The notes beneath the pieces are model-generated. The model made no database searches. It was given only the letters and a program-made list of their open reading frames with translations, and had not been told where the DNA came from. Shown here in pieces: positions 190-1,829 of a DNA stretch of 7,125 bases. The stretch is from a virus (Monodnaviria; Loebvirae; Hofneiviricota; Faserviricetes; Tubulavirales; Inoviridae). Each line of letters opens with the position of its first letter. Position 1 is the first letter of the stretch. A program made the translations under genes and the position numbers. The stretch lies in IMG/VR virus record IMGVR_UViG_2675903606_000001; one strand, 5' to 3'.

Positions 190-1314
190 CTATTTCAACG
201 GAAAACGTTGAGTAGCAATTGCTGCATCCAATTTATTTTTAGCTATTGCTGAGCGTTCCGGTTTAAATTGATAGTCGCCGTAATAATTATCATCATTTGC
301 ATCATTCCTTATCCTTATATCAACACCGAGATCCTTATAATCGATGCCTTTCGACAACTGGCGAGTCATTTTTATTTCTTTTCTTTGTCCCTTATCAATC
401 CATTCACTTATTGAATATGTAGCACCTGTAGTATCTTCAGCAACATGATATTTATCTCTTAGTTCGTGTAAAGCTTGACGTCTATCAGCGTCATTCCTAA
501 TGTTCAATACTTTTCCCAACTCATCATAATATTGGTTTTCATCTCTAACTATAAATTTCATGTCCGCACTAAGGTTATAGTTGGTTTTATTATCAATAAT
601 GAAAACATACTCGATTTTCCCATCCTTCACATTAAGACTCTTTAGATCAATCGGGAAGTCTGATTTTGATGTATCATATTGTTTTGTAAGGGAGTTATTT
701 TGGAATGAATTATTTTCAAAACCTCTATCATAGAAAGGAGTGAATCTCATTTTGAAATATTGCGTATATGTTACTTCAAAGGGATCGTAACCTTTGTATA
801 TGGCTCCTCCCATTAATACTAAAAATGCAATAAACAATGAAAAGCTGAAGAAAGCAGGGCCAAGGCTAGGTGGTATTTTCTTTATGCTGTCATAACACTT
901 TCCATTAGCATCTTCAGATTTCAATATTGGTAAGTTAGACTTCGATAGAACGCCACCATTTTTAACCAAAACAATCAAAGTAATATTTTCCTTTGGCAGG
1001 ATGCGGTCAATGATTATTTTGTTATCTTTACATTCAATGCTAACATTATTAGCTGAGATAAGAGATATCGACTTGCTTTTTGGTATTGTAATGGTTACGT
1101 TTTTTTCTTTCTCTTTTCCTTTGTTCGTAACTGTGAACATGACTGTATATCCAGTTATGCTTTGTGTTGTGTGCTCTAATATATGTTCATATGCTAAGTA
1201 AAGTTGTCTAATACGAAATGTTGAAAAAAATTTATTCAAAATAAGAGCAACAAAGAAGGTTGCTACTGCTCCTGCAATTTTCCCTAGAAGTGCATTCATT
1301 TGGTTGATATCCAA
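190..1314 (-). CDS. Hypothetical two-helix membrane protein (374 aa), AT-rich prophage cargo gene of unknown function
   Basis: Long uninterrupted ORF. Predicted hydrophobic helices at about aa 10-30 (LGKIAGAVATFFVALILNKFF) and aa 150-172 (PAFFSFSLFIAFLVLMGGAIY), with a charged C-terminal domain of ~200 aa. About 30-34% GC by hand count on sampled lines versus ~48% in the neighbouring gene. Start is ambiguous: the track start at 1314 is TTG; the first ATG is at 1297-1299; neither has a strong Shine-Dalgarno. No recognisable catalytic motif. Confidence 0.7.
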   Translation of the reverse strand: MDINQMNALLGKIAGAVATFFVALILNKFFSTFRIRQLYLAYEHILEHTTQSITGYTVMFTVTNKGKEKEKNVTITIPKSKSISLISANNVSIECKDNKIIIDRILPKENITLIVLVKNGGVLSKSNLPILKSEDANGKCYDSIKKIPPSLGPAFFSFSLFIAFLVLMGGAIYKGYDPFEVTYTQYFKMRFTPFYDRGFENNSFQNNSLTKQYDTSKSDFPIDLKSLNVKDGKIEYVFIIDNKTNYNLSADMKFIVRDENQYYDELGKVLNIRNDADRRQALHELRDKYHVAEDTTGATYSISEWIDKGQRKEIKMTRQLSKGIDYKDLGVDIRIRNDANDDNYYGDYQFKPERSAIAKNKLDAAIATQRFPLK

Positions 1315-1380
1315 TTAAGTAAGTTGTTTGCAGCACAATTTTTCCATTGTGGAACTGATAGGGTTCAGTTTCCTCTTATT

Positions 1381-1402
1381 AAACCGTGGTTTCCCACGGT
1401 TT
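1381..1402 (-). terminator. Stem-loop between the 140-aa and 374-aa genes (possible weak terminator or attenuator)
   Basis: AAACCGTGG (1381-1389) / CCACGGTTT (1394-1402) form a perfect 9-bp inverted repeat with a 4-nt loop. On the minus transcript the GC core is CCGUGG-GAAA-CCACGG (GNRA-type loop) followed by UUUAAUAA. It begins 4 nt after the stop of the 140-aa ORF. The U tract is interrupted, so termination would be partial at best. Confidence 0.3.
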
Positions 1403-1406
1403 GAAA

Positions 1407-1829
1407 TTACCAGTGATATGAATTTCTTCTGTGCCACCAATAAAGCAGCCCGTATCCGATGATAAGAATTCCGAAAAACATCAACGACATTCCCCAGCCA
1501 GTTCCATACCACGAAACCATATCATCGAAAACCAATCCACCCGTTTCACGTACTCCGGCAGCTTCCTTAAGGATTGGTTTGAATACCGGAATCAGAAGGG
1601 CAATCGCCAGTGGAGCACCCCAGCGAACAAGACCTGTTTCCATTTTGATCCCGAAAAAGATCCCCGCCCCAACAACAAGCAGCCAGACTATCAGGCTAGG
1701 CGCAGTTTCCAGAGCTGTTTGCCATTCAACATCGAAAGTTTTCATTAGCCAGGCAACAACTGCCAGACAGAAAGCAAATATGCCCACGACAACCAGTTCA
1801 ACGCCGCTTGTTTCGTTATTTCTACTCAT
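1407..1829 (-). CDS. Hypothetical small inner-membrane protein (140 aa, about 4 predicted transmembrane helices)
   Basis: ATG start at 1827-1829 preceded on the minus strand by AAGGA with ~8 nt spacing. Four hydrophobic stretches (about aa 10-29, 45-62, 68-85, 110-133). The overlapping plus-strand ORFs are polar, Pro/Ser/Thr-rich shadow ORFs typical of the antisense of a membrane-protein gene. Function unknown. Confidence 0.7.
   Translation of the reverse strand: MSRNNETSGVELVVVGIFAFCLAVVAWLMKTFDVEWQTALETAPSLIVWLLVVGAGIFFGIKMETGLVRWGAPLAIALLIPVFKPILKEAAGVRETGGLVFDDMVSWYGTGWGMSLMFFGILIIGYGLLYWWHRRNSYHW

Follow-up and report, generated by a model that had tools for sequence, protein, structure and literature searches.

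The filamentous prophage CUS-1 carries, adjacent to attL, two open reading frames (ORFs), orf1 and orf1a, which reportedly lack homologs and a known function (PMC4266046), and the UPΦ viruses, which are IKe/I2-2-like, dif-integrated and tandem and have genes II and V in common with YpfΦ, carry next to dif three reverse ORFs without function, h3–h5, of which h4 and h5 occur in just 56–57 of 229 prophages (PMC7307601). Here we describe the matching region of a 7,125-nucleotide stretch, IMG/VR record IMGVR_UViG_2675903606_000001 (the window), which derives from a dif-integrated, tandemly duplicated Escherichia coli inovirus with an IKe/I2-2-like structural module. A gene for a membrane protein of 369 amino acids (aa) and a gene for a 140-aa protein with four predicted transmembrane (TM) segments lie there between a dif-like junction and the repressor gene. 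From their position we infer that the two genes correspond to the pair orf1/orf1a of CUS-1 and, probably, to the pair h4/h5 of UPΦ. CUS-1 has the same genes: the 369-aa gene is 100% identical, and the left arm of the window (83–2598 aligned) is 98.3% identical to the prophage of strains UTI89 and NU14.

In filamentous prophages of Vibrio, accessory genes are concentrated at one hotspot, where defence systems are enriched (PMC11630473), and the Pf phages of Pseudomonas carry the defence module KKP (PMC11341870). The site described here resembles the hotspot of filamentous or tailless Vibrio prophages in being one locus of a small dif prophage, with conserved flanks and exchanged content that consists partly of defence genes; it differs in host clade and phage lineage, and in E. 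coli the slot forms the 3′ end of the repressor arm and is immediately followed by a shared terminator–dif module. Loci of this kind, in which small prophages integrated at dif carry defence cargo at an accessory hotspot, are already known. P2 and P4 prophages, too, are said to have defence hotspots, reportedly described by Rousset et al. in 2022.

The literature found, searched by accession, PHROG id and phage name, contained no functional study of either gene and did not describe this hotspot for inoviruses of E. coli. Against that background, three things appear to be new: the exact definition of the slot in inoviruses of E. coli and the Enterobacterales, the finding that the presumed cassette is one backbone gene plus one swappable gene, and the delineation and fold of the 369-aa family. 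The preliminary description of the window had called the system undescribed; the ORFs are on record as unknowns of CUS-1 (PMC4266046) and, by position, of UPΦ (PMC7307601), and the hotspot idea has been published for Vibrio (PMC11630473).

In the window, a variable cargo slot is filled by the 369-aa gene, and the 140-aa gene belongs to the conserved flank of that slot. Position and architecture incline us, on balance, to regard the 369-aa protein as a phage-exclusion or defence factor that the prophage expresses from a single gene and that is located in the membrane.

The cargo slot and its fillings

Both ORFs follow the XRE repressor gene co-directionally on the minus strand, as the preliminary description had stated, at a place where it held Ff and IKe phages to have no genes, and the UPΦ paper agrees (PMC7307601). 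The region is the far end of the lysogeny (repressor) arm of a filamentous prophage of the CUS-1/UPΦ type integrated at dif. Between the stop codon of the 140-aa gene and the terminator–dif module there is a cargo slot with sharp boundaries, and it is there that the low-GC 369-aa membrane-protein gene sits (coordinates in Table 1).

The slot was catalogued in 40 loci as the region from the stop codon of the 140-aa gene to the XerC arm of the dif-like junction. Its flanks (1–180, and from 1383 or 1406 onward) are 94–98% identical among sister prophages, and at least 11 slot states were found, one of them empty. The states are the 369-aa gene of the window; a Zn-ribbon protein with a 159-aa protein; a 309-aa AbiJ_NTD4 and DUF7014 protein (PADLOC PDC-S32, 4.5e-10); a 264-aa DpnII/MboI-type restriction endonuclease (REase) with DUF6953 (L033–L035; PADLOC Aga_Helical-REase, 1.3e-34); a 155-aa with a 123-aa protein; a 110-aa protein; three related sets of a small protein and a multi-TM protein; a 368-aa CAP12/Pycsar-type TIR effector (L040, 6029–7135; PF10137, 4.5e-20); and the empty state (L043), in which the stop codon of the 140-aa gene is followed by 7 bp and then by the terminator–dif module. 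Recognised anti-phage defence genes are present in three of the 11 fillings, namely AbiJ_NTD4/PDC-S32, DpnII-MboI REase/Aga_Helical-REase and CAP12-Pycsar TIR/PDC-S35. The DpnII/MboI-like nuclease and the TIR protein both also match the PADLOC candidate PDC-S35; the TIR filling comes without the usual cyclase and the DpnII/MboI-like filling without the usual methylase partner.

Conserved flanks around differing content, the mark of a hotspot, are on this comparison a property of the 369-aa gene only, the 140-aa gene being part of the conserved flank. The expectation that cargo with defence-type functions would occupy this position was borne out as far as the site is variable and holds defence genes in sister prophages, but in the window the cargo is limited to the 369-aa gene and a 107-bp spacer.

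Every type of cargo ends just before ...TTGGTTCGCACAATGACG, and the 95-bp terminator–dif module beyond it is 93–95% identical across different inovirus backbones (L008–L011, L054, L055, L048, L051–L053); the module looks like a shared recombination anchor. Cargo would probably be exchanged by recombination between co-resident or tandem prophages that have the flanks in common. Between the CUS-1 backbone and the UPΦ-type backbone of the window, the 369-aa gene does not differ by a single nucleotide (100% identity), which points to recent exchange.

The 369-aa protein and its family

The larger ORF (190–1314) encodes 374 aa from a TTG codon, the length given in the preliminary description; homologs and RefSeq start at the ATG at 1299 (MNALLGK...), which leaves 369 aa. 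The AT-richness and the two hydrophobic helices reported with it were both recovered: the gene has a GC content of 0.33 (0.28 at third codon positions, GC3) vs. 0.39–0.41 for the GC of backbone genes, and hydropathy places hydrophobic segments at about 8–27 and 147–169. The ratio of non-synonymous to synonymous substitution (dN/dS) is 0.048 in comparison with strain ZYB62 (25 synonymous and 5 non-synonymous changes); for the 140-aa gene, seven of eight comparisons give 0.06–0.13 and the remaining one, based on only seven substitutions, gives 0.41. Both ORFs are real genes under purifying selection and not chance ORFs.

Neither protein of the window had a match in PADLOC-DB v2 at E up to 1 or anything above threshold in Pfam and NCBIfam, and no toxin or antitoxin domain was found in either; the matches in PHROGs are to families of unknown function only. 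This agrees with the earlier statement that neither protein resembles the structural or replication proteins of inoviruses, since no match to inovirus core, Pfam or PADLOC families was obtained. A tblastn search of 50,697 deposited phage genomes gave no match to the 369-aa or the 140-aa protein; the members of the PHROG families must therefore come from prophages.

An AlphaFold2 model of the 369-aa protein from an alignment of 82 sequences reached a predicted local distance difference test score (pLDDT) of 92.6 and a predicted template modelling score (pTM) of 0.73, vs. a pLDDT of 69 from an alignment of nine sequences. The model consists of TM1 (2–27), a β-sandwich with an NKGKxxEK motif (33–136), TM2 (147–168), two short helices (173–191) and, in the C-terminal part (194–364), a second β-sandwich with an inserted helical hairpin. 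No enzyme fold was found in this high-confidence model, in keeping with the earlier remark that no catalytic motif is visible. A sequence-profile comparison of the family with the Protein Data Bank (PDB) gave marginal β-sandwich matches only, and the N-terminal domain of the window protein has a CARDB/DUF11-like immunoglobulin (Ig)-like match below the curated Pfam threshold. The Ig-like domains of CARDB, DUF11 and FixG_C are usually extracytoplasmic repeats, whereas the domain in the 369-aa protein is a single copy, predicted to be cytoplasmic, between two TM helices.

In 80 of the 82 members, lysine and arginine (K/R) residues flanking loop 1 outnumber those of the N- and C-terminal flanks combined, and TM2 is preceded by K/R in the manner of a signal anchor. 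By the positive-inside rule, the N-terminus is predicted to be external, the first β-sandwich cytoplasmic and the C-terminal β-sandwich periplasmic. Mean pairwise identity in the family is highest in the N-terminal β-sandwich (36%) and lowest in the distal C-terminal domain (17%).

Two other cargo proteins, of 159 aa (L005, 4182–4661) and 155 aa (L006, 4598–5065), are 37% identical to each other; each has a TM helix at the N-terminus, a coiled-coil and a β-strand motif, N[KR]GKxxAKN[VI], that resembles the one in the 369-aa protein; the hhalign probability of either against the 369-aa family is just 25–31%.

The number of relatives found depended on the search: eight by word-indexed search, two loci only in a genome scan with a narrow family alignment, and 189 clusters at 50% identity by exhaustive profile search, about 32 of them full length, many sharing only the first ~250 residues and none carrying an annotation. 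Homologs with 61–62% identity directly follow the repressor in other inoviruses, which have the terminator–dif module (93–95% identical) downstream but lack the 140-aa gene. Further relatives lie beside an integrase gene at the edge of a P2-like prophage; between integrase and lysis genes in a Massilia prophage; in P. capsici, within a small insertion next to a Bro-N gene; and, in Pseudomonas (L012–L014, 5910–9930), 193 bp downstream of the gene for an LmuB-like SMC-type ATPase of 965 aa (PADLOC, 6.7e-21), as a 309-aa protein encoded between two MvaT genes. The Pseudomonas island also contains serine recombinase, HEPN and RES genes.

This distribution bears on whether the protein serves the inovirus itself, in competition with rivals that integrate at dif, by modulation of envelope, pilus or TolQRA that limits superinfection, or against the secretion stress of virion export. 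Nearly all of the closest relatives (61–100% identity) are found in inovirus lysogeny arms just upstream of the terminator–dif module, a dif prophage can be superinfected by a related phage and lose its place to it, and lysogeny by YpfΦ confers partial protection against YpfΦ (PMC4266046; PMC7307601). Distant members, however, are carried by tailed prophages and by an island that is not a phage, settings in which a role specific to inoviruses would be hard to explain, and the gene is dispensable, most sister prophages carrying something else or nothing; we regard such a role as improbable.

The 369-aa gene is rare, being present in 10 of 5426 complete E. coli genomes and in just 10 of the 128 that have the 140-aa gene. 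It is present in UTI89 and NU14, both of them O18:K1:H7 strains in which the prophage is CUS-1, and the protein is annotated in RS218 too. CUS-1 and YpfΦ raise fitness in animal models, and the cholera toxin genes of CTXφ lie next to an att junction, though at the attR end, opposite to the attL-side slot (PMC4266046). These facts would suit a lysogenic-conversion gene of extraintestinal pathogenic E. coli that contributes to host fitness or virulence without relation to phage. The CUS-1 virulence hit, by contrast, was in the pIII-like gene puvA and not in orf1 or orf1a (PMC4266046), the 369-aa protein is, by prediction, anchored to the inner membrane rather than secreted or surface-exposed, and the gene is found in a bovine isolate and the family in Massilia, Marinobacter and Pseudomonas; a virulence function seems very unlikely. 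Identity of the AT-rich gene with puvA itself was considered and rejected, as puvA encodes a receptor-binding virion protein (PMC4266046).

Proposed function of the 369-aa protein

A role in phage exclusion or defence is suggested because a rare, mobile, non-enzymatic membrane protein under purifying selection is encoded in a slot that otherwise holds defence-type genes; the 189 clusters, the varied positions in mobile elements and the rarity indicate the behaviour of an accessory gene. In the mechanism proposed, the conserved CARDB/Ig-like β-sandwich would reside in the cytoplasm, TM2 would act as a signal anchor and the variable C-terminal β-sandwich would project into the periplasm, no enzymatic domain taking part. 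The periplasmic domain could then bind an incoming phage component, or the inner-membrane entry machinery of the host, and so block entry in the way of superinfection exclusion. We favour this entry block, tentatively, among the possible modes of defence, because the protein stands alone, has no toxic domain and is encoded at the end of a seemingly constitutive lysogeny arm; the low conservation of the C-terminal domain would fit an outward-facing recognition domain.

T4 Imm, P22 SieA, HK97 gp15 and lactococcal Sie2009 are small, non-enzymatic, membrane-anchored exclusion proteins that act alone, with a domain facing the periplasm or the outside, and they are expressed from the prophage or early in infection. 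The same class of architecture is predicted for the 369-aa protein. No sequence or fold relationship was found between these proteins and those of the window, and we know of no arrangement in any of the four in which two β-sandwich domains lie on opposite sides of the membrane. Both proteins of the window are prophage-encoded and non-enzymatic and are predicted to be anchored in the inner membrane (by two and four helices), which are the features of the superinfection-exclusion class. It is a speculative and rather doubtful extension that the 369-aa family forms a new class of single-protein antiviral immunity acting across the inner membrane, in which the periplasmic β-sandwich would detect and the cytoplasmic β-sandwich and the TM pair would block.

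The pattern of conservation can also be read in favour of abortive infection, in which the cytoplasmic β-sandwich would sense a phage product and the TM helices would oligomerise and depolarise or permeabilise the inner membrane, the cell dying before phage release. The most conserved part of the protein is the β-sandwich on the cytoplasmic side and not the periplasmic domain; other fillings of the slot are Abi-like effectors (AbiJ-like, solitary REase, TIR); one relative is encoded immediately after an LmuB-like ATPase, and HEPN and RES genes are found in the same island; and two-TM effectors are common in defence systems. On the other hand, the protein has just two TM helices and lacks any recognised pore-forming or effector domain, the gene stands alone at the end of a seemingly constitutive lysogeny arm with no obvious control partner, and the variable part of the protein is predicted to face the periplasm. 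We consider a membrane effector of this kind unlikely.

Several observations weigh against phage exclusion or defence in any form. The support is guilt by position, and homology points to no function; at E up to 1e-3, the 82 family members had no significant match among the PADLOC models or among Pfam families that are informative about function. Eight of the 11 slot fillings are without recognisable function, and in Vibrio complete known defence systems occupy only 8.5% of the filamentous-prophage loci (PMC11630473). The β-sandwich domains are generic binding modules that fit many other roles, and the topology comes from the positive-inside rule alone, the signal at TM2 being weak (2.40 vs. 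2.04 K/R). No sigma-70-like promoter was found on the minus strand upstream of the 369-aa or the 140-aa gene, and co-transcription of the cargo with the repressor arm is presumed. A role unrelated to phages is possible, given the link of CUS-1 and YpfΦ to host fitness in animals (PMC4266046).

Should the 369-aa protein protect against phage, it would be a compact, enzyme-free, membrane-spanning defence protein without known relatives, and small dif filamentous prophages of E. coli, Salmonella and Klebsiella would shuttle defence cargo through a single, exactly bounded slot. That slot could be mined systematically, with the 140-aa gene or the repressor gene and the 95-bp terminator–dif module as anchors, and the retention of CUS-1/YpfΦ-type prophages in pathogenic lineages could have another explanation. 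If transmembrane immunity were the correct reading, the tail of the repressor arm in Enterobacteriaceae inoviruses would be an unexplored reservoir of compact systems, because eight of 11 fillings have no recognisable function. Even without an effect on phage, a conserved gene of the regulator arm is separated from the true cargo and the two-gene idea is corrected. The model uropathogen UTI89 and the K1 strain RS218 would both allow a direct test of the 369-aa protein.

The 140-aa gene and its relation to the 369-aa gene

Four hydrophobic segments (about 12–29, 44–61, 66–83 and 110–132, by hydropathy) agree with the four-helix membrane protein of the preliminary description; the membrane location is predicted. 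The gene has a GC content of 0.47 and a GC3 of 0.45, and a sequence-profile search of the family against the PDB found nothing. All CUS-1/UPΦ-type variants compared have the gene, the one with the empty slot among them, as do 128 of 5426 complete E. coli genomes and 23 inovirus-sized contigs of IMG/VR; the family averages 83% identity across Enterobacterales. A 39%-identical homolog in a distant inovirus again directly follows a small regulator gene. By these comparisons the 140-aa protein is the product of a conserved gene of the regulator arm and not cargo; as a guess, it might serve homotypic exclusion or membrane homeostasis during chronic infection. Intact homologs (81% and 52% identity) stand alone near glsB in Lonsdalea (L022/L023) and Mixta (L018/L019), around 8001–8423, with no inovirus genes called nearby, and may be remnants of degraded prophages at dif.

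The two genes had been described as a two-gene cassette. This does not hold: the 140-aa gene is present in all variants, the empty slot included, and 15 of 16 further loci with a member of the 369-aa family are without it, the sole exception being the circular episome NZ_CP128883.1. The distribution argues for two independent accessory genes and against an obligate cassette. In the slot of NZ_CP128883.1 a divergent family member is split into ORFs of 71 and 288 aa, apparently by a frameshift or an assembly error.

The order of repressor, four-TM protein of about 140 aa and larger protein is reminiscent of phage λ, in which the exclusion genes rexA and rexB come directly after the repressor gene cI, and an obligate two-component exclusion system expressed with the repressor might be imagined, with the 140-aa protein as membrane effector and the 369-aa protein as its partner. 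Both genes have moved as a block between three backbones (UTI89, the phage of the window and ZYB62), and no terminator was found between them. Against this, the hhalign probability is below 1% (0.15% and 0.26%) for the 140-aa protein vs. RexB and the 369-aa family vs. RexA; the two genes are not co-inherited, the 140-aa gene occurring with at least 10 other downstream fillings and with none; and the 369-aa protein has membrane anchors of its own. An obligate pair is thus most improbable. Homology of either gene to Rex was rejected on the hhalign result, and the pair model is largely refuted by the distribution.

In ZYB62, which has a 60-aa gene in place of the repressor gene, homology breaks at 1913; because of this break, the hairpin at 1872–1900 and most of that at 1901–1918 are seen to travel with the 140-aa gene. 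These two hairpins and the one at 1381–1402 are without a U-tract, and hairpins related to the last are present in other slot variants.

Structure and boundaries of the prophage

Table 1 Features of the left arm of the window (positions 1–2374).
Feature	Position	Strand	Remarks
Right end of preceding tandem copy, into XerC arm and central region of junction	1..99	+	Also matches right end of last copy in L001 and UTI89
Imperfect dif-like junction	85..117		XerC arm GGTGCGCATAA 85–95; spacer of 11 nt, 96–106; XerD-like arm TTATGTTGAAA 107–117; read from sequence
Terminator–dif module, conserved	85..180		Distal flank of cargo slot; window 1–180 common to all variants
Intrinsic terminator of minus-strand (lysogeny/cargo) operon	115..154	-	10-bp GC-rich core stem 119–128/141–150, extendable to 17 bp, then UUUUC
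Variable cargo slot	181..1405		Filled by 369-aa gene and 107-bp upstream spacer; homology to sister prophages interrupted from 180 to 1383 or 1406
369-aa cargo protein	190..1299	-	UTI89 ABE07214 / WP_001555908; matches phrog_17621 (unknown function)
Spacer	1300..1406	-	Hairpin 1381–1402 directly after stop of 140-aa gene; no U-tract and no promoter-like site on minus strand
140-aa four-TM inner-membrane protein (predicted)	1407..1829	-	ABE07213 / WP_000089310; ATG start; matches phrog_4174 (unknown function)
Intergenic region, repressor to 140-aa gene	1830..1927	-	Hairpins 1901–1918 and 1872–1900 (z = -3.1); AAGGA ribosome-binding site before ATG
XRE/cI-type repressor	1928..2374	-	First gene of minus-strand arm; HTH_3 1.4e-9, Phage_CI_repr 1.9e-4 (Pfam); phrog_3557, transcriptional regulator

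The genes had been placed inside the prophage boundary, and several findings confirm this. In UTI89 the junction of host and prophage beside hipA starts at window position 83 (junction 83–99), next to the dif-like site, whose XerC arm is perfect and whose XerD arm matches at 9 of 11 positions; an imperfect dif site between tandem copies is known from YpfΦ (PMC4266046). The 140-aa and 369-aa genes lie between the dif-derived junction and the repressor/replication module, and they lie within a circular form as well. The latter is NZ_CP128883.1 (L047), a 9565-bp circular ‘untypable plasmid’ of E. coli TUM14759, which contains the same arm and slot; the record is a CUS-1-like inovirus genome and the circle presumably its replicative form. 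Since this episome carries the slot with a family member, the slot belongs to the circular phage genome.

The terminator within the terminator–dif module folds as RNA with -38.7 kcal/mol (z = -5.8), and none of 200 shuffled sequences folds as well. It is kept in all slot variants and is also found 3′ of members of the 369-aa family in other inoviruses. A 67-bp remnant of the module follows a stand-alone chromosomal homolog of 73% identity (P0002), with no phage genes nearby.

The first 2.5 kb of the window are 100% identical to E. coli SCPM-O-B-12142, in which the prophage is a tandem repeat beside the dif region with a unit of 9078 bp. The prophage of UTI89 and NU14 adjoins hipBA, a neighbourhood that we take to be the dif region. 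The inovirus core genes II, V, VIII, III, VI and I/Zot are present in the rest of the window, as judged by Pfam (Phage_CRI, 2e-72; Putative_G5P, 1.6e-51; Phage_coatGP8, 6e-21; G3P_pilus-bind, 8.5e-25; DUF5455, 1e-9; Zot, 1.2e-38), and gene I is 77% identical to its counterpart in phage I2-2. The structural module fits the description of UPΦ as IKe/I2-2-like, dif-integrated and tandem, with three reverse ORFs after dif.

The genome of the phage is mosaic: its left arm (cargo and repressor, 1–2600) is about 98% identical to CUS-1, and its structural and assembly module (2546–7125) is IKe/I2-2-like. By annotated synteny, genes II and V are included in the likeness of the left arm to CUS-1; for structure and assembly, the UTI89 prophage has a gene set different from that of the window (DUF2523 and others).

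More than 400 plasmids of E. coli, Klebsiella and Salmonella, most of them conjugative, carry genes for helix-turn-helix (HTH) proteins to which a 135-bp stretch in the HTH region of the repressor gene (2201–2335) is about 91% identical. The 503 plasmid matches were rejected as evidence of cargo on plasmids, as they consist mainly of this stretch and not of cargo.

The Gly-rich linker of the attachment protein is the most variable part of UPΦ phage (PMC7307601); in the translation of gene III of the window (~5040–5170), Gly-rich repeats of the attachment protein occur as four copies of GGGDT and three of GGGNS.

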